A DNA stretch of 39,251 nt from a virus. The stretch's first letter is position 1; each line of letters begins with the position of its first letter. The notes under the pieces are model-generated. The model was given only the letters and a program-made list of their open reading frames with translations, did no database searches and had not been told where the DNA came from. A program made the translations under genes and the position numbers. This document shows positions 1 to 39,251 of the stretch, one piece after another. The stretch lies in IMG/VR virus record IMGVR_UViG_3300045988_063349, positions 1 to 39,251 of that record. One strand, 5' to 3'.

Positions 1-119
1 TCCAAGCTGTCTACTGTAGACATTAAAAACAAAAAAACTTTTATAAATTTTGATTTACCTCTTGACTTTACGGCGTTATCGCCGTATAATAGAGACAACA
101 AAAGGGAAACACCCAAAGA
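1..119. repeat. Terminal direct repeat copy 1 (identical to 39133..39251); circular-contig overlap
   Basis: Read directly: bases 1..119 equal bases 39133..39251. Confidence 0.95.
62..90 (+). promoter_or_regulatory. Sigma-A type promoter P1 with an operator-like palindrome in the spacer
   Basis: TTGACT (62..67), 17-nt spacer, TATAAT (85..90). The spacer contains TACGGCG-TTAT-CGCCGTA (69..86), which overlaps the -10. Confidence 0.75.
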
Positions 120-136
120 AAACGGAGGAAAATAAA

Positions 137-427
137 ATGAAAATCGCAGGAATCGGAAACGTCCGCAAAGCGGACATCATGAAAGAGATGTTAAGCCCAG
201 AGGGTCGCGGCATGGTGCGCCGCGGCGAGATTACAAACGAGGAGCTTGCCGCAGAGTACAAGCGTTGGATTGTAAGTAAGGCGTCCAAGTTTGGACGTTA
301 TCCGGACACGTTTGACGCTTGCTGGAGCAACATCCCTGCGGGCGTGAGAGAGTCCGCCGCAGTGGCAGACCTCGCCGAGCTTGTCAACAACTTTTATTAC
401 TCCCGCCCTCACGGGTATGACGAGTAA
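137..427 (+). CDS. Hypothetical small protein (96 aa), first gene of the accessory island
   Basis: ATG at 137 lies 8 nt after GGAGG, in frame with ORF 50..427. No recognisable domain. Confidence 0.7.
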   Translation: MKIAGIGNVRKADIMKEMLSPEGRGMVRRGEITNEELAAEYKRWIVSKASKFGRYPDTFDACWSNIPAGVRESAAVADLAELVNNFYYSRPHGYDE

Positions 428-428
428 T

Positions 429-459
429 AAAAAAATCCCCTCGGCTTGGTGCCGAGGGG
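429..459 (-). terminator. Intrinsic terminator of the minus-strand ncRNA
   Basis: On the minus strand: CCCCTCGGC-ACCAA-GCCGAGGGG followed by A and TTTTTTT. On the plus strand the hairpin has no downstream T-tract. Confidence 0.75.
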
Positions 460-493
460 ATAGTGGGTGGTGGTAAAAATTACCCAAACTTAT

Positions 494-529
494 GTTTCAA
501 CCCGTGTGCGGTCGGATTGCTGACCGCAC
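494..529 (-). repeat. CRISPR-repeat-like element A: GTGCGGTCAGCAATCCGACCGCACACGGGTTGAAAC
   Basis: 8-bp stem, 8-nt loop, 12-nt tail ending GTTGAAAC. Part of unit 486..558. Confidence 0.6.
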
Positions 530-608
530 CAATCTAGTAGCATCCAACTAGATCGACTGTTGTTTTGGTTTTGCCGTTGTGGCTATTGCCAAAACTGTCT
601 AAATTTAT

Positions 609-644
609 ATTTCAATCCGTGTGCAGTCGGATCGCTGACTGCAC
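609..644 (-). repeat. CRISPR-repeat-like element B: GTGCAGTCAGCGATCCGACTGCACACGGATTGAAAT
   Basis: Same architecture as A, 115 bp away. The tail GGATTGAAAT matches type I-C repeat 3' ends (from memory). Part of unit 601..673. Confidence 0.6.
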
Positions 645-679
645 CAACCTGACAGCATCCAGCCAGGTTGACTATAACT

Positions 680-708
680 ATAATAATGCCTTGACAACGG
701 TTTGTCAA
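680..708 (-). promoter_or_regulatory. Promoter of the ncRNA
   Basis: Minus strand TTGACA (708..703), 17-nt spacer, TATTAT (685..680). The predicted start near 673 coincides with the unit B boundary. Confidence 0.7.
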
Positions 709-710
709 GG
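689..710. promoter_or_regulatory. Perfect 9-bp inverted repeat (operator candidate) covering the ncRNA -35 and lying just upstream of the HTH gene RBS
   Basis: CCTTGACAA-CGGT-TTGTCAAGG read directly. Confidence 0.6.
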
Positions 711-724
711 TGAAGGAGGCAAAA

Positions 725-1102
725 ATGAGGAAAATAATAAAGGGTCACCTGTGCAGCACTGAGACTGCACGGAATGTAGCGGAAAGTGAGACCTGTGCGA
801 TTTATCAAAACCGCGCAGGGTTTTACTTTGCGTTTTATCCAGCCGAACAGGACATTGCCCTGCTGACAGACGAGCAGGCGCAGGCAGAACTGCGCAATCT
901 GTCACACGCCGTGCCGAACGGAATCAAGACTTTGCGTAGAGCCGCAAAGTTGACGCAAAAGCAGCTGGCCGATGCTGTCGGTCTTGACATCCGGAATCTA
1001 CAGCGGTATGAGAGCGGTGAGTTTGACGTTGCAAATATGAGCTTGTCAATCGCTGTAAAGATTGCCGACGCGCTGGGCGTCGACGCAAAAAAACTTTTAT
1101 AA
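725..1102 (+). CDS. XRE-family helix-turn-helix protein (125 aa), Aca-like position
   Basis: ATG after GAAGGAGG. C-terminal motif LTQKQLADAVGLDIRNLQRYESGE is typical of HTH_XRE. The N-terminal 60 aa are unassigned. Confidence 0.75.
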   Translation: MRKIIKGHLCSTETARNVAESETCAIYQNRAGFYFAFYPAEQDIALLTDEQAQAELRNLSHAVPNGIKTLRRAAKLTQKQLADAVGLDIRNLQRYESGEFDVANMSLSIAVKIADALGVDAKKLL

Positions 1103-1117
1103 ATTCCGTTTTTCCTC

Positions 1118-1146
1118 TTGACTTTACGGCGTTTTCGCCGTATAAT
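1118..1146 (+). promoter_or_regulatory. Promoter P2, near-identical duplicate of P1
   Basis: TTGACT, 17-nt spacer, TATAAT with TACGGCG-TTTT-CGCCGTA. The surrounding block 1087..1170 is about 93% identical to 31..116. Confidence 0.75.
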
Positions 1147-1185
1147 AGAGACAACAAAGGGAAACACCCACAGGAGGAAAACAAA

Positions 1186-1491
1186 ATGAAAAAAGTAAGA
1201 TATGCAGATTTAAGTAATGTGACAAACCACAAGTTTGCCGTAGTAATCAGCTCGCTCAAAGATTTTGAGATCGAAGAGGTCGGAGAATACGAGCAGCACG
1301 CAAACGCAGCAATTTATGTGCACCTCGGCAGGATGGATGCGGAAGAACTCGACGAGTACTGCGAAGGCGTGCTTGAGTACATCGAGAAAAACAACGAAGG
1401 CGAACCGGTAGACGATGAAATTTTTGACTGCTGGGAATGGGTAGGCGAAAACGAATCGCGGACTCTTGTCTTTCCAGAATCGTGGGTGTGA
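1186..1491 (+). CDS. Small highly acidic hypothetical protein (101 aa)
   Basis: ATG after AGGAGG. Rich in D/E (EEVGEYE, DAEELDEY, EGEPVDDE). Confidence 0.7.
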   Translation: MKKVRYADLSNVTNHKFAVVISSLKDFEIEEVGEYEQHANAAIYVHLGRMDAEELDEYCEGVLEYIEKNNEGEPVDDEIFDCWEWVGENESRTLVFPESWV

Positions 1492-1505
1492 AGGAGGAAA
1501 CGAAA

Positions 1506-1976
1506 GTGATTTATCTGTACGACAGAAAAGAGCTTGATTTTAATGCAGCCGACAGCCTGACTATCATTCACAACGAGCAACGGTACTTCGCATGGCTTGC
1601 GAAAACTCTCAAGCCGGAACGCGCGAAATACCTTGAGCACATCGACGAGGGATATGACGACACGGACGAAGAGCGGTCGTATTTTCAGCTCGGCGAAGTA
1701 GAGCAAGCTTGGCTGGAGGATGTTTTCAAAGAAGCCGCAAACGGTGGGAGCAGCGTTGAGGTTTCGCAGTTTGACACAAAGTCTCGGCTGCCCGAAACTT
1801 ACGATTTTGGAATCGACTATCATTATGCTGTCGCTGCGGGCGACCTGCCCGCGGACTTCGAGAAGGAAAACCGCGAGCACTGGCCAGAATTTCATTTTTG
1901 GAAGGGCGGTCACGTGATTGATAAACCGGAAAACGAGGACGAACCCGGCAATCTTATAGAGGTGTTCACACTGTGA
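1506..1976 (+). CDS. Acidic hypothetical protein (156 aa)
   Basis: GTG start 8 nt after GAAGGAGG, in frame with ORF 1437..1976. Confidence 0.65.
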   Translation: MIYLYDRKELDFNAADSLTIIHNEQRYFAWLAKTLKPERAKYLEHIDEGYDDTDEERSYFQLGEVEQAWLEDVFKEAANGGSSVEVSQFDTKSRLPETYDFGIDYHYAVAAGDLPADFEKENREHWPEFHFWKGGHVIDKPENEDEPGNLIEVFTL

Positions 1977-1979
1977 AAA

Positions 1980-2006
1980 CAGCCGCCCAAACGGGCGGCT
2001 GTTTTT
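1980..2006. terminator. Bidirectional intrinsic terminator between convergent operons
   Basis: CAGCCGCCC-AAAC-GGGCGGCTG flanked by AAAA upstream and TTTTT downstream. Confidence 0.8.
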
Positions 2007-2295
2007 ATATCTTTGATAGTTTTAAAAAGATTTGATTATAGACGCGCGGGCTGACAACGGACAGCGTTTGCATCAGCTCATCCATCACTCTCCACGCGGA
2101 TGCTTGATCTACAGAGGCGACGAGGCGCAGAAAGTCGCTGTCTGTCGGCATGTCCGGCGGCGCCGCTTGGCTGTAGCCGCTCGAATTGTGCGCACGGACA
2201 GTGTACAGATTCGCCAGCTTTTGCACATTTGCATAAGTTGTCTGCGAGTGCTCAAGCTCTACGATCGCGCTCTCTACCTCTTGCATATCAAGCAT
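2005..2295 (-). CDS. Hypothetical protein (96 aa), last gene of the post-lysis cassette
   Basis: ORF track; tightly packed with the upstream gene. Confidence 0.6.
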   Translation of the reverse strand: MLDMQEVESAIVELEHSQTTYANVQKLANLYTVRAHNSSGYSQAAPPDMPTDSDFLRLVASVDQASAWRVMDELMQTLSVVSPRVYNQIFLKLSKI

Positions 2296-36245: not shown

Positions 36246-36647
36246 TTGAAAAATACACTTCCGGACAGAGTGCGCAGCTTGCGCAAGAGCAACAAACTGT
36301 CACAGACAGCATTTGCCGAAAGCCTTGGCGTAACCTATGGCGTGATAAACAACATCGAGCTAGGGCGCATTCAGCAGTGGGACACCAAAATCCCTCTGCT
36401 AAACCTAATGTGCGACAAATACGGATGCCGGCGCGAATGGTTAATCGACGGAGAGGGCGAGATGATGCAAGACTTATCTCGTGAGCAGGAGATTATAAGA
36501 GCGGTCAGTGAGATGTTTACCGGTGATGACAGCTTTAAGCAGGATGTTATATCAATGCTGGTAAAGCTACCGGATGAGTGCTGGGGGCTGCTTGAGGACA
36601 TGGCGAGGCGTTTGCTTGATGAGCAAAAAAAAGAGAGGCAGGGTTAA
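36246..36647 (+). CDS. XRE-family repressor (CI-like), 133 aa
   Basis: TTG start after AAAGGTGGTGA. HTH motif LSQTAFAESLGVTYGVINNIELGR. Divergent from the early promoter. Confidence 0.7.
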   Translation: MKNTLPDRVRSLRKSNKLSQTAFAESLGVTYGVINNIELGRIQQWDTKIPLLNLMCDKYGCRREWLIDGEGEMMQDLSREQEIIRAVSEMFTGDDSFKQDVISMLVKLPDECWGLLEDMARRLLDEQKKERQG

Positions 36648-37036: not shown

Positions 37037-37621
37037 ATGACAAGACAAGAGGCAACACAAAGCGCCGCGATGATGCTCGCACAGGCGCGAAATGACGCGG
37101 GGCTGTCGCAAAGGTTTGTTGCACAGGCGATCGGCGTCGGCGAGAGGACGGTAAAAAATTGGGAGGCTGGCAGCAGCGCGCCGAACGTCGTGCAAATGGT
37201 CAGCTGGTTCCGCGCGTGCGGCATCAATCCGCTCGGATATGTGCTGGAATGGCTTGACCCAGCGAACTTTGACGGGCTGACGGCAACAGACAGCATAGAG
37301 GATGTAAAAAGCGCGTTAATGGCATATATTAAGGATATAGCCACGGAAAAAGAGATAAGACAGCTGGCATTTTGCATATTTGGCAATCACGGAAGTTCGT
37401 GGCGGTCACAGCTGGACATGCTGACAGCGCACGATCATACAACCCTGCGCAGCCGCGTGACCGTGGCGCGGGCAGTGCTGGAAAATTACGAAATGGAAGA
37501 TGCGCAAGGGATGCTGGTCAATGCGGACGACATCCCGCCAGACCTCTCACACCTGCGGGACGCAGTGGAAAAGGGCAAGGATGCCGTGCAGGAGGGAAAG
37601 AAAGGATATGTCGGAATATGA
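37037..37621 (+). CDS. Second XRE-family HTH protein (194 aa), translationally coupled to the integrase
   Basis: ATG after AAGAGG. HTH motif LSQRFVAQAIGVGERTVKNWEAG. The stop overlaps the integrase ATG (ATGA). Confidence 0.7.
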   Translation: MTRQEATQSAAMMLAQARNDAGLSQRFVAQAIGVGERTVKNWEAGSSAPNVVQMVSWFRACGINPLGYVLEWLDPANFDGLTATDSIEDVKSALMAYIKDIATEKEIRQLAFCIFGNHGSSWRSQLDMLTAHDHTTLRSRVTVARAVLENYEMEDAQGMLVNADDIPPDLSHLRDAVEKGKDAVQEGKKGYVGI

Positions 37622-39114
37622 TAGCTATATATGCGAGACAATCAGTCGAGAAAGCGGAAAGTATATCAATAGAGCAACAAATAGAGATGTGCCAACGCTG
37701 TGCAGACAGCGCAGCTGTAGAGGTGTATTCTGATGCCGGATTTTCCGGCAAAAATACCGCCCGCCCTGACTTCCAACGGATGTTGCAAGATGTAGAAAAC
37801 GGCTTGATAAATAAAGTCGTTTGCTACAGATTGGACAGAATAAGCCGAAATTTGTTGGACTTTGCAAACGTCTGGGAACTGCTGCAAAAACGCAAAGTTG
37901 AGTTTGTCAGCGTGTCCGAGCAGTTTGACACGACGACGCCGATTGGCAAGGCGATGATATATATCGCAATGGTATTTGCGCAAATGGAGCGTGAGACAAT
38001 CAGCCAGCGGATCACAGATAACTATTATACCCGTACAGCACATGGCGCATGGGGAGGCGGTCAGCCGCCGTTTGGCTTTAGTCTATCGCGCAGATTGATA
38101 AACGGCAAGATGCAGGCAGCATTGGAACCGATACCGCACGACATAGACATTGCAAAATGGATGTTTGAGGAGTACGCGACTGGAATCCGCTCGCTCGGCT
38201 GGATTGCAAGCGGCGTGTACGATAAACACCCGACGCGCGACACGCGCTGGAATAATGTCTCTGTGCGCAGGATACTCAAAAACCCGATCTACGCTGCCGC
38301 CGATGCTGATTTATACGCGTTTTTCACGGCGCGCGGGATAAATATAGCCTCATCTTTGACAGCTTTTGACGGCACGCAGACGGCCGTGCAAGTCGGCAGC
38401 CGGTCAAACGATACACGCGTGCGCAGACCGGTCGAAGAGCAGCAGTTGTGCATTTTCCCCGCCGAGCCGGTTGTGTCGTCCGCGACGTGGATTGCTGTGC
38501 AAAAAAATTTGTCGGAAAACAAACAGATAAAAAACAGCGGGAAAGGTAAATACTCCTGGCTGTCCGGCAAATTAAAGTGCGCATCCTGCGGCTACGGCTG
38601 CACGGCACATTATGATAAAAAAGTAAAGCGTGTATACCTGCAATGCACAGGCAGGTACAGGCAAAGCGTCAAGGCCGCGCGGTGCGAAATGCGACACACC
38701 GAGCGGATTGAGGACATCGAGGCGGCGGTGCTGACTCAACTAAAAGAGTACATGAGCGACGCAGAGCCGGCGCAGTCCGGCGTTGACGCACGGACGGAAC
38801 AGCGCAGAAACGAGTTAAAGCTGCAGCTGATAGATGCTCAACAAAAGCAGTCAAACGTTGCCGCCGCGATCGCCGACGGCGGCGCGGAGGTAATGCGGCT
38901 CATGCTGCCGGAAATCAAGCGGCTGGACGAGCAAGTCTTAGACATCACAAACCAGCTGTCGCAACTGTCTGAGCGCACAGTGCCCGCGTGGAGCAAAGAT
39001 TGCTACTTTGACTTAGACGAGCTGACGCGCGACCAGCTGCACGATCTCGCAGCGCTGACTATAAATAATGTATATATATCACCGACCGCCCCGCCGCGCG
39101 TGGAATGGAAGTAG
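37618..39114 (+). CDS. int: Large serine recombinase (integrase), 498 aa
   Basis: MIAIYARQSVEK catalytic Ser motif, resolvase N-domain (VCYRLDRISRN), recombinase domain, Cys-rich zinc ribbon (CASCGYGC ... C), C-terminal coiled coil. Confidence 0.9.
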   Translation: MIAIYARQSVEKAESISIEQQIEMCQRCADSAAVEVYSDAGFSGKNTARPDFQRMLQDVENGLINKVVCYRLDRISRNLLDFANVWELLQKRKVEFVSVSEQFDTTTPIGKAMIYIAMVFAQMERETISQRITDNYYTRTAHGAWGGGQPPFGFSLSRRLINGKMQAALEPIPHDIDIAKWMFEEYATGIRSLGWIASGVYDKHPTRDTRWNNVSVRRILKNPIYAAADADLYAFFTARGINIASSLTAFDGTQTAVQVGSRSNDTRVRRPVEEQQLCIFPAEPVVSSATWIAVQKNLSENKQIKNSGKGKYSWLSGKLKCASCGYGCTAHYDKKVKRVYLQCTGRYRQSVKAARCEMRHTERIEDIEAAVLTQLKEYMSDAEPAQSGVDARTEQRRNELKLQLIDAQQKQSNVAAAIADGGAEVMRLMLPEIKRLDEQVLDITNQLSQLSERTVPAWSKDCYFDLDELTRDQLHDLAALTINNVYISPTAPPRVEWK

Positions 39115-39165
39115 TCTATTTTTATTTTTATGTCCAAGCTGTCTACTGTAGACATTAAAAACAAA
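39115..39165. other. Candidate attP core
   Basis: Immediately downstream of int: imperfect dyad TTTTTATGTCCAAGC-TGTCTAC-T-GTAGACA-TTAAAAA. Location is inferred only. Confidence 0.3.
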
Positions 39166-39251
39166 AAAACTTTTATAAATTTTGATTTACCTCTTGACTT
39201 TACGGCGTTATCGCCGTATAATAGAGACAACAAAAGGGAAACACCCAAAGA
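39133..39251. repeat. Terminal direct repeat copy 2 (identical to 1..119)
   Basis: Read directly. Confidence 0.95.

Follow-up and report, generated by a model that had tools for sequence, protein, structure and literature searches.

A candidate anti-defence island with duplicated promoter-operator cassettes and a convergent two-hairpin RNA in a temperate phage from gut Clostridia

Operons that combine anti-CRISPR (acr) genes with a regulator (Aca) that also controls a neighbouring operon have been described for Aca1, Aca2, Aca11/13 and Aca14 (PMC6765145, PMC9410906, PMC13551039), the co-regulation of an adjacent operon by the Aca repressor of anti-CRISPR loci having been described in 2026 (PMC13551039), and structures have been solved for Aca1, Aca2 and Aca10 (PMC8633003, PMC9410881). 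RNA anti-CRISPRs of phages (Racr), which are solitary CRISPR repeat units, form a second point of comparison, with RacrIC1 adjoining AcrIC5 in a Bifidobacterium gut prophage (PMC10651486). Here we describe a locus that resembles both, and give about an even chance to its being an accessory island of the anti-defence type that is run by one XRE-type repressor of the Aca kind.

The window, that is the whole stretch of 39,251 nucleotides that was analysed (IMG/VR record IMGVR_UViG_3300045988_063349), is a complete circular phage genome with a terminal repeat of 119 nt (1-119 = 39133-39251), and the phage is temperate and comes from gut Clostridia. No DNA relative of the window was found among GenBank phages, the window contains no tRNA genes, and Rfam gave no match at gathering thresholds over its whole length or at E up to 10 over positions 1-2100. 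The island (Table 1) lies between the integrase and attP on one side and the end of the late genes on the other. Its position next to attP, which the initial annotation had proposed, is directly shown by L003, where the same phage is found integrated: host DNA there joins phage DNA at TCCAAG, which places P1 about 25 nt from the crossover; related host/phage junctions are found in L012 and L005. The flanking host DNA carries a MatE gene with at most 67% identity to any species genome.

Table 1. Features of the island and of the adjoining att region, with positions in the window
Feature	Position	Strand	Remarks
Large serine integrase gene	37620-39114	+	On the circle, immediately ahead of attP and P1
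attP right arm	1-29		Crossover at or near TCCAAG (1-6); palindrome GTCTAC-T-GTAGAC inside
P1 cassette	30-143	+	Conserved among 13 distinct cassettes from relatives
P1 upstream stretch		+	A/T-rich; KKLL-stop relic at 31-46
P1 -35 and -10	62-67, 85-90	+	TTGACT, TATAAT
P1 putative operator	69-86	+	TACGGCG-TTAT-CGCCGTA
P1 leader, possible small hairpin	104-114	+	GGG-AAACA-CCC
P1 ribosome-binding site	124-128	+	GGAGG; ATG at 137
ORF1	137-427	+	96 aa; neutral charge, hydrophilic, no known family
Intrinsic terminator of the RNA	435-461	-	11-bp stem then TTTTTTT; plus strand without U tract
RNA unit B (transcribed second)	488-557	-	Two hairpins, loops UGGAUGCU and AGCAAUCC, tail ACGGGUUGAAAC
RNA unit A (transcribed first)	603-672	-	Two hairpins, loops UGGAUGCU and AGCGAUCC, tail ACGGAUUGAAAU
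RNA gene promoter	680-710	-	TTGACA 708-703, 17-nt spacer, TATTAT 685-680
XRE-type HTH regulator gene	725-1102	+	125 aa; last codons (KKLL-stop) inside P2
P2 cassette	1086-1199	+	Leader, ribosome-binding site, ATG at 1186
P2 -35 and -10	1118-1123, 1141-1146	+	
P2 putative operator	1125-1142	+	TACGGCG-TTTT-CGCCGTA
ORF3	1186-1491	+	101 aa; pI 4.24, net charge -17, no known family
ORF4	1506-1976	+	156 aa, GTG start; pI 4.44, net charge -21
Bidirectional terminator	1972-2009		Also serves the late operon (minus strand) at its end

As the window is circular the P1 copy does have a gene ahead of it, namely that of the serine integrase, orthologues of which match the Pfam families Resolvase, Recombinase and Zn_ribbon_recom, and the earlier statement that no gene stands in front of this copy was mistaken. 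It had also been stated that four plus-strand genes run against a genome that is otherwise on the minus strand. The four genes are indeed present, but the plus-strand block runs on into the lysogeny module, so that the plus strand is used beyond the island too. This module is a separate unit that includes a cI-like repressor and a Bro/ANT-type protein.

The duplication of a promoter-operator-leader block is real, with 91% identity between 30-108 and 1086-1164, and if one indel is allowed the repeat extends past the ribosome-binding site and ATG to a total of about 110-114 nt. As TTGACT-17-TATAAT promoters both P1 and P2 score 11/12, and they are predicted to be near-consensus sigma-A promoters. 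The palindrome TACGGCG-N4-CGCCGTA was confirmed in both cassettes, where its 7-4-7 arrangement takes up the 17-nt spacer and reaches into the -10 box. Within the window the exact form is confined to these two cassettes; when up to 3 mismatches are allowed there are 5 such palindromes against 1.6 expected, a number reached in 0 of 100 shuffles. In all relatives examined a cassette follows the att site, and in most of them a second follows the stop codon of the regulator gene. Across the 13 cassettes the half-sites of the operator are invariant, two P1 copies with a single C-to-T change excepted; the 4-nt centre is free to vary, as would be expected of a site bound by a dimer. The hairpin in the leader is a possible structure only, since there is a single compensatory variant (in P2 of L012) and it is absent from P2 of L025. 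A scan of IMG/VR for the exact pattern of the window's own cassette gave no match, and in the metagenome collection no more than 3 stretches contain the cassette pattern.

The two cassettes had been taken for the product of a segmental duplication, with the KKLL-stop string in the first copy as its footprint. Duplication is the correct reading, but it is not an event particular to this phage; an older duplication of the cassette is common to most of the clade and is a family trait with concerted evolution. Within one genome the leaders of P1 and P2 are more alike than corresponding leaders are across phages. The KKLL-stop relic is present in P1 of this phage only, and the stretch upstream of P1 in its relatives is different (AAAAATATTTTTAAG...); in the window it therefore reflects a recent conversion of P1 by P2, which took place on top of the older duplication.

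Residues 67-121 of the HTH protein give a match to Pfam HTH_3 (E 6e-11), and the N-terminal 60 residues are of no recognised type. The family of this protein is made up of 39 clusters which, bar one weak match to the HTH only, have at least 64% identity over the aligned stretch; it was found in this phage clade only and is absent from 185,579 species genomes. Against PDB chains at E up to 0.01, solved Aca structures included, it gave no match, a comparison that covers the Aca families of solved structure. All relatives have the HTH gene downstream of P1; in L009 it is driven by P1 directly, and in L018, L025 and L199 it closes the P1 operon. Both the protein and the operator half-sites are essentially without variation among relatives, in contrast to the variable cargo. 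Two hallmarks of acr-aca loci are therefore found here, an HTH regulator gene in or after the operon and an inverted-repeat operator that overlaps the promoter. Judging from its position the protein would bind the palindrome and repress P1 and P2; this would agree with an Aca-like repressor of its own operon whose control extends to an adjacent one, and the two near-identical promoters probably answer to this one repressor.

XRE proteins are also found as antitoxins, which autoregulate via palindromes, and the island could on this basis be an addiction system in which the HTH protein is paired with a neighbouring toxin, or in which ORF1 and the RNA form a type I or type III pair. Weak profile matches of the HTH protein to the MqsA, HipB and PezA antitoxin families are in keeping with this. 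It would seem very improbable, however, as the neighbours of the HTH gene vary among relatives with a full promoter in between, no gene at all follows it in L018, L020 and L202, and the cargo is acidic, not basic. No conserved toxin gene co-transcribed with, and beside, the XRE gene was found.

The cargo itself is a mosaic, with 9 island layouts and at least 10 unrelated families without known function across the relatives, and its proteins are small, soluble and mostly acidic. That the window encodes two very acidic proteins holds good for ORF3 and ORF4 (Table 1). ORF3 has homologues in two protein clusters only, both from sister phages, and the ORF4 family is small, with 9 representatives among 1.8 billion proteins. 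Profile and sequence searches with the four window proteins gave no match to any known Acr, Ocr or ArdA family, and structure prediction did not supply one: the model of ORF3 is unreliable and could not be used (pLDDT 49.6), and ORF4 is predicted with confidence to adopt an alpha/beta fold (pLDDT 86.4) that has no match in the PDB and BFVD at E up to 0.001 (best TM-score ~0.3), so that a DNA-mimic fold was not found for it in these collections. The acr/aca-like reading of the initial annotation is supported in part: by comparison with the relatives it stands as regards the HTH protein, palindromic operators, strong promoters and acidic cargo, and the anti-defence role that it proposed would be a candidate function.

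Weak matches to Acr families were found in relatives, not in the window, and these are below threshold. The 114-aa P1 cargo protein of L012 matches AcrIIA3_fam (E 1.2e-5, 25.4 bits against a cut-off of 70), as does its relative in L057 (E 1.6e-4, 21.7 bits, same cut-off), both with partial coverage of the profile. In another phage a relative of ORF4 (P0047) adjoins a gene for an AcrIC5-like protein of 47 aa (26.5 bits, cut-off 27; E 7.4e-6; again over part of the profile). None of the cargo proteins reaches the curated cut-off for a known anti-defence family, and none matches a PADLOC defence model. In some host strains a type I-B CRISPR-Cas system lies right beside the prophage; the CRISPR spacer of L012 has no match among the related loci compared.

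A site at the prophage end beside att is the classic "moron" position, and cargo that has its own promoters and terminator, differs between relatives and lacks solid Acr matches would also suit an island for lysogenic conversion or superinfection exclusion, in which genes expressed from the prophage benefit or protect the lysogen, host immunity is not countered and the HTH protein sets the level. Exclusion genes typically encode membrane or surface proteins, however, and the island has none; its cargo is small, soluble and mostly acidic without a PADLOC match, what weak matches there are point to Acr families, and relatives of ORF4 are found in early operons of other phages, not at prophage ends. 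We regard this as an alternative, albeit an unlikely one. An anti-defence function of the island is plausible, and we would put it at roughly even chances; what speaks for it is confined to the two sub-threshold Acr-family matches in relatives and to the likeness of the RNA described below to CRISPR repeats.

The region between ORF1 and the HTH gene is occupied by a structured RNA that is transcribed in the opposite direction. All of its base pairs (16/16) covary and it has a folding z-score of -7.6. Its promoter, TTGACA-17-TATTAT, ends 7 nt ahead of unit A and overlaps a palindrome, CCTTGACAA-N4-TTGTCAAGG (689-710), an arrangement of promoter and palindrome that is the same in L012, L005 and L015; when a strict pattern is applied, at least 24 of the 64 distinct members of the family have a clear promoter ahead of their first unit. 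There are one or two units in tandem, and when there are two they are 94-115 nt apart. The RNA is carried by at least 118 gut-phage contigs, a figure obtained with a looser pattern (the exact pattern of the window's unit has no match in IMG/VR), and all loci are on viral contigs. The family is absent from Rfam. Located on a virus with its own promoter directly upstream and no cas genes nearby, the RNA shares these properties with Racr RNAs. Proteins of the ORF1 family are phage proteins that are nearly always paired with the convergent RNA, and the RNA also occurs without ORF1. The RNA is transcribed towards ORF1, so that transcription from P1 could arrive at the HTH gene only by passing through the RNA gene in antisense; with the HTH gene on the far side, convergent transcription from P1 and the RNA promoter is plausible.

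The ends of the RNA, and the ends only, match type I-C repeats: it starts with GUCG(C) and finishes with GGRUUGAAAY (repeat sequences from PMC8916207 and PMC5626976). The type I-B repeat of L012, the only host CRISPR repeat seen, does not resemble the RNA, which has no match at E up to 10 among the CRISPR repeat families of Rfam; a search of 401 Clostridia genomes for CRISPR arrays ending in CACGGRTTGAAAY found none, with single chance matches only. The two units were also considered as a mini-CRISPR array and this was rejected, since the linker is homologous between phages and contains a hairpin, and is therefore not a spacer. A kissing loop or pseudoknot between loop 2 and the tail, looked for by eye, showed one-sided changes only and is not claimed.

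With respect to the addiction system raised above, the type I pairs of Bacillus prophages are convergent with a terminator in common, as ORF1 and the RNA are, and the one or two tandem units recall type III antitoxins. Against this, ORF1 is a hydrophilic protein of 96 aa, not a small membrane peptide, conservation in the RNA is found in the loops and tail and not in a stretch antisense to ORF1, the RNA is also present where ORF1 is not, and no ToxI-type match was found in Rfam.

It could further be supposed that the HTH protein, RNA and ORF1 tune integration and excision or the late genes of the phage itself, with the cargo being developmental regulators. The island lies between integrase/attP and the late-gene end, and in other phages a sigma-like late regulator or the small terminase is often found close to the ORF1-RNA module. 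Close relatives do not as a rule exchange core regulators, however, and here the cargo is swapped between them; furthermore the phage has its own lysogeny module with a cI-like repressor and a Bro/ANT-type protein, and L009 and L010 have neither ORF1 nor the RNA with the rest of the genome the same. Such a role in phage-internal regulation we think very unlikely.

If the island is an anti-defence island under an Aca-like repressor, a dimer of the HTH protein on the palindrome would block RNA polymerase, so that P1 and P2 would give a burst of expression when DNA enters the cell, damped once repressor has accumulated, and would be kept at a low level in the lysogen. The repeated cassettes of ~110 nt may double as recombination handles for the exchange of cargo, a step suggested by the likeness of leaders within a genome and by the piece of the HTH gene end in the window's P1. 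The cargo (ORF3, ORF4 and ORF1 with the RNA) would then inhibit host defence, which on the present analysis is its most likely function, with CRISPR-Cas as the leading candidate target.

As the ends of the RNA are like those of type I-C repeats, the leading idea for the RNA is that it may act as a decoy for Cas proteins. Its start, GUCG with a hairpin, would resemble the 3' handle of a crRNA, its end, a hairpin followed by GGAUUGAAAY, would resemble the repeat stem and 5' handle, and the mimic could trap Cas5, Cas7 or Cas8 with ORF1 as partner or as a second inhibitor. That ORF1 and the RNA form a new and widespread counter-defence module in this way, with the RNA as a composite mimic of type I-C repeats and the Aca-like repressor driving ORF3 and ORF4 too, is a tentative proposal and one that we consider rather doubtful.

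What appears to be new here, from the sequence comparisons, is ORF1 and a two-hairpin RNA as a recurring module of gut phages. The pair may represent a new class of repeat-mimic RNA with a protein partner, or else a phage regulatory RNA of a new kind. Should the anti-defence reading be true, there would be a new family of Aca-like regulators with a clean operator, which could be used as bait for finding further such genes, and at least 10 small protein families, among them that of ORF4 with its confident but unmatched model, would be candidates for inhibiting immunity in gut Clostridia, for which to our knowledge few inhibitors are known. The duplicated cassettes in concerted evolution would show how phages may swap such cargo.

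Comparison with known systems brings out both shared and distinct features. ORF3 and ORF4 are small and strongly acidic (-17 and -21) as are Ocr, ArdA and DNA-mimic Acrs, but ORF4 matches Ocr and ArdA in neither sequence nor structure, its best TM-score being the ~0.3 given above. In common with Racr RNAs, a small RNA encoded by a phage immediately follows a promoter, cas genes are lacking in the vicinity and the locus is part of a gut-prophage accessory island; the RNA begins with GUCG(C) and has a hairpin before its GGAUUGAAAY tail, like the repeats of type I-C (PMC8916207, PMC5626976); and there is an AcrIC5-like gene, which is found beside a relative of ORF4. Unlike Racr, the unit here is not a copy of a 31-33-nt repeat, being ~65 nt long with two hairpins and conserved loops of 8-9 nt, and there are often two units (94-115 nt apart); furthermore the RNA is convergent with a conserved ORF1 and not co-transcribed with an acr gene, and no similar host repeat was found in L012, Rfam or the 401 Clostridia genomes.

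Finally, the island is like acr-aca loci in having a small HTH regulator downstream of small genes of no known function, an inverted repeat within a strong promoter with the same operator before the adjacent operon, a short structured leader (if the possible hairpin is real) and variable cargo in a phage accessory region. It is unlike them in that the island holds no validated Acr and the HTH protein forms its own family, with a 60-residue N-terminal domain and no match to a solved structure; in addition the entire promoter-to-ATG cassette of ~110 nt, and not the operator alone, is duplicated and evolves in concert, and an oppositely directed RNA gene lies between cargo and regulator.

The island combines two strong promoters with a common palindrome, a regulator gene downstream of the first, variable cargo and a structured RNA directed towards ORF1. 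Its four plus-strand genes have the sizes and charges described in the initial annotation (96, 125, 101 and 156 aa, the last two very acidic), and the duplicated promoter-operator-leader cassette reported there is confirmed: the repeated block has 91% identity across 79 nt and, with one indel allowed, extends through the ribosome-binding site and first two codons, both copies match TTGACA-17-TATAAT at 11/12 positions, and the perfect TACGGCG-N4-CGCCGTA occurs nowhere in the genome outside the two cassettes. Across 13 distinct cassettes CTTGACTTTACGG(C/T)G-N4-CGCCGTAT is invariant, with the four central nucleotides free to vary (TTAT, TTTT, CTTT, ATTT, AAAT, AAAA, GAAA), the pattern of fixed half-sites and variable centre that would be expected of a predicted protein-dimer site. 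The leader carries a hairpin of 3-4 bp (GGG/CCC, GGGG/CCCC, or GAGG/CCTC in P2 of the sister phage L012), which in the window is GGG-AAACA-CCC, ~10 nt past the predicted transcription start; as there is one compensatory variant, and one cassette (P2 of the sister L025) lacks the hairpin, it is only suggestive.

Features of the island, its surroundings and related loci (window positions unless a locus is named)
Feature	Position	Strand	Remark
cI-like HTH gene	36246-36647	+	plus-strand block round the junction
Second HTH gene		+	same block, between cI-like HTH gene and integrase
Large serine integrase	37620-39114	+	then 150-nt gap, then island
Integration site	1-6; L003:7290-7300		TCCAAG
Cassette P1	30-143	+	leader hairpin 104-114
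ORF1	137-427	+	
Two-hairpin RNA	429-673	-	units A 603-672, B 488-557
Second palindrome	689-710		CCTTGACAA-N4-TTGTCAAGG
HTH gene	725-1102	+	
Cassette P2	1086-1199	+	leader hairpin 1159-1169
ORF3	1186-1491	+	
ORF4	1506-1976	+	
Two-way terminator	1972-2009		island end; common to last minus-strand late gene
ORF4 relative with AcrIC5-like protein	L023:4001-4727; L024:115-841		unrelated phage
ORF1-RNA islands	L057:497-1846; L072, L075, L077 (~1000-2300)		other phages
Lone partial CRISPR repeat	L012:8560-8590		oriented away from cas6

The window is an entire IMG/VR virus record with a completeness rating of 100%, and bases 1-119 recur at 39133-39251, so the genome is circular and written with an overlap. 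The apparent lack of a gene ahead of the first cassette, remarked on initially, is therefore an artefact of the circle's cut point, the serine integrase gene preceding it. The same phage was found integrated in a 51.7-kb metagenome scaffold (L003), where the host/phage junction at TCCAAG places the attP crossover ~25 nt left of the first cassette, so the island was correctly placed next to attP. The integration site is the 3' part of a polysaccharide-deacetylase-type-like host gene, of which the junctions in L003, L005 and L012 keep merely an 81-110-aa remnant ORF.

In the 125-aa protein, residues 67-121 form an XRE-type HTH (Pfam HTH_3, E 6e-11), and the first 60 residues gave no match. Its homologues fall into 39 clusters, with at least 64% identity over the aligned stretch save for one weak HTH-only match; the homologue contigs examined are all from sister phages, and the family was not found in 185,579 species genomes. 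The gene always follows P1 in the same orientation, and P1 drives it directly in the sister L009, a position that would suit a negative autoregulator also controlling the next operon. No convincing plus-strand promoter was seen for the gene in the window, the one candidate being a -10-like box that lacks a -35. There the P1 transcript has to get past the RNA's terminator, weak in the plus-strand direction, and traverse the RNA gene in antisense before it arrives at the HTH gene. Transcription of the RNA could therefore set the amount of repressor, and the convergent-transcription interference raised initially is plausible. The second palindrome, in which TTGACA can be read on either strand, covers the RNA promoter's -35 box immediately upstream of the HTH ribosome-binding site, and is retained in L012 and partly in the sisters L005 and L015.

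Comparison of nine island layouts, window included, shows that the control system is conserved and its cargo exchangeable.

Island layouts in the window and related phages (RNA units, in brackets, lie on the opposite strand)
Locus	Order
Window, L003	P1, ORF1, (RNA x2), HTH, P2, ORF3, ORF4
L012	P1, 114 aa, ORF1, (RNA x2), HTH, P2, 120 aa
L009, L010	P1, HTH, P2, ORF3-like, 110 aa, 94 aa
L005, L006, L200	P1, 181 aa, (RNA x1), ORF4-like + HTH, P2, 123 or 135 aa
L015	P1, 85 aa, (RNA x1), HTH, P2, 125 aa, 107 aa
L018, L020	P1, 128 aa, 285 aa, HTH (no P2)
L025	P1, 128 aa, 304 aa, HTH, P2, 109 aa
L199	as L025, with ORF3-like and 120 aa behind P2
L202	272 aa, HTH

The cassettes are indeed duplicated, and P2 starts within the final codons of the HTH coding sequence (AAAAAAACTTTTATAA, which specifies KKLL-stop). 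The same string in P1 had been read as the footprint of that duplication; however, in most relatives the stretch upstream of P1 is of its own type (AAAAATATTTTTAAG...), and among the cassettes compared only the window has the P2-type stretch on P1. Furthermore, P1 and P2 leaders are closer within one genome than counterpart leaders are between phages (for example L005, L015 and the window), which together with the distinct P1 upstream stretch of relatives indicates an old pair evolving in concert by inter-copy recombination. The window P1 records a recent recombination event between the copies, one that probably also deleted the 114-aa gene still present in L012.

The cargo is mostly acidic (pI 4.0-4.9), with three related proteins basic. 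None of the window cargo, nor ten cargo proteins of relatives, reached the curated cut-off for a named Pfam, NCBIfam or PADLOC family, three of the relatives' proteins matched only PHROGs families of unknown function, and the window proteins had no match among PDB sequences. The ORF4 family has 9 representatives among 1.8 billion proteins. Resemblance to Acr, Ocr or ArdA proteins, raised initially, was not borne out for ORF4: the AlphaFold prediction, of good confidence (pLDDT 86.4, pTM 0.81), had no structural counterpart in either the PDB or a set of viral models, so the protein has neither an Ocr/ArdA-type nor a known Acr fold. The ORF3 model is unreliable (pLDDT 49.6).

Two weak matches to anti-CRISPR families are leads rather than proof. 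The 114-aa protein encoded behind P1 in L012 and a relative in L057, from another phage, match the N-terminal half of NCBIfam AcrIIA3_fam (E 1.2e-5 and 1.6e-4; 25 and 22 bits, far under the cut-off of 70). A relative of ORF4 with 45% identity, encoded by an unrelated phage, directly precedes a 47-aa acidic protein that matches the C-terminal half only of the Pfam AcrIC5 profile (E 7.4e-6; 26.5 bits, the cut-off being 27), and a strong promoter heads the early operon that holds the pair. Some host strains do carry CRISPR-Cas, as at L012:1-8600 (host contig NODE_1 of ERZ1026850) a related prophage lies ~230 nt from cas6 of a complete type I-B operon (cas6, cas8b, cas7, cas5, cas3, cas4, cas1, cas2 and an array with repeat GTTTTAATCTATCCATATTGGAATGTAAAT); the same attB gene has other neighbours in L003, which indicates strain-to-strain variation at the cas locus. 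Between cas6 and the attB gene there is a solitary, degenerate partial repeat, CCACATTGGAATGTAAAT, a possible crRNA-like regulator belonging to the host system.

ORF1, a family without matches in Pfam or solved structures, and the RNA form one module, which is widespread and has no description in any library searched. The RNA region folds far beyond shuffled controls (z-score -7.6) and has its own minus-strand promoter (TTGACA-17-TATTAT) and terminator, for a predicted transcript of ~245 nt. An ORF1 homologue (46% identity) in the unrelated gut phage fragment MT839401 is directly followed by one RNA unit on the opposite strand, and among 20 IMG/VR loci that encode ORF1 homologues at 40-49% identity, 18 have 1-2 units just downstream in that orientation. 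A covariance model built on four units recovered 19 distinct units, with both-sided changes at 16/16 base pairs and 96.3% of cells pairing against 31-40% with slid partners, values reached by 0/500 shuffles; fitting the alignment to the model biases it toward pairing, but with the slid control and an effect this large the structure is secure. The RNA is read from the strand opposite ORF1, since 26 cells that are G-U in this orientation would become A-C mismatches in the reverse one. The loops and tail pattern occur in at least 118 viral contigs, and an ORF1 homologue is nearby, always convergent, in 55 of 80 RNA loci examined (within 400 nt in 26 of these), the RNA being found without ORF1 in L005 and L015. 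Several module-bearing phages have a small XRE HTH gene (56-68 aa) beside it. The small ORF1-RNA islands of L057, L072, L075 and L077, from other gut phages, hold XRE HTH, AcrIIA3-N-terminal-like and small acidic proteins, which suggests a similar regulated accessory locus under a different regulator.

The RNA consensus is GUCG, hairpin 1 (loop UGGAUGCU), UGG, hairpin 2 (loop AGCRAUCC) and CAC-GGRUUGAAAY. Published type I-C repeats consist of GTCGC, a stem-loop and GTGGATTGAAAY (PMC8916207, PMC5626976), and the RNA unit resembles them in having GUCG(C) and a hairpin at its start and a hairpin, 2-3 nt and GGRUUGAAAY at its end; in a gut prophage, moreover, a validated type I-C RNA anti-CRISPR has an AcrIC5 homologue as its neighbour (PMC10651486). 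However, the unit is double the length of a CRISPR repeat and its loops are conserved in a sequence specific to them, it gave no match to the CRISPR repeat families of Rfam and is unlike the type I-B repeat on the sole host contig examined (L012), and no array with the RNA tail was found in 401 Clostridia genomes, a set without the true host's. We consider a CRISPR repeat mimic rather improbable.

The acr/aca-like reading of the initial annotation holds for the control architecture, which is well supported by the conserved cassettes, the HTH position and the exchange of cargo; an anti-defence function, for which no Acr match reached cut-off, is plausible. In the proposed scheme an HTH dimer would occupy the spacer and -10 region at both promoters, giving an early burst then repression and controlling the adjacent operon too. 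Such a burst and repression have been shown for Aca1 and Aca2 (PMC6765145, PMC9410906), and control of the adjacent operon is predicted for most Aca families (PMC13551039). This is an Aca-like-controlled accessory island, new in its regulator family, in cargo families that are all uncharacterised, in the concerted evolution of whole promoter cassettes and in its embedded protein-RNA module.
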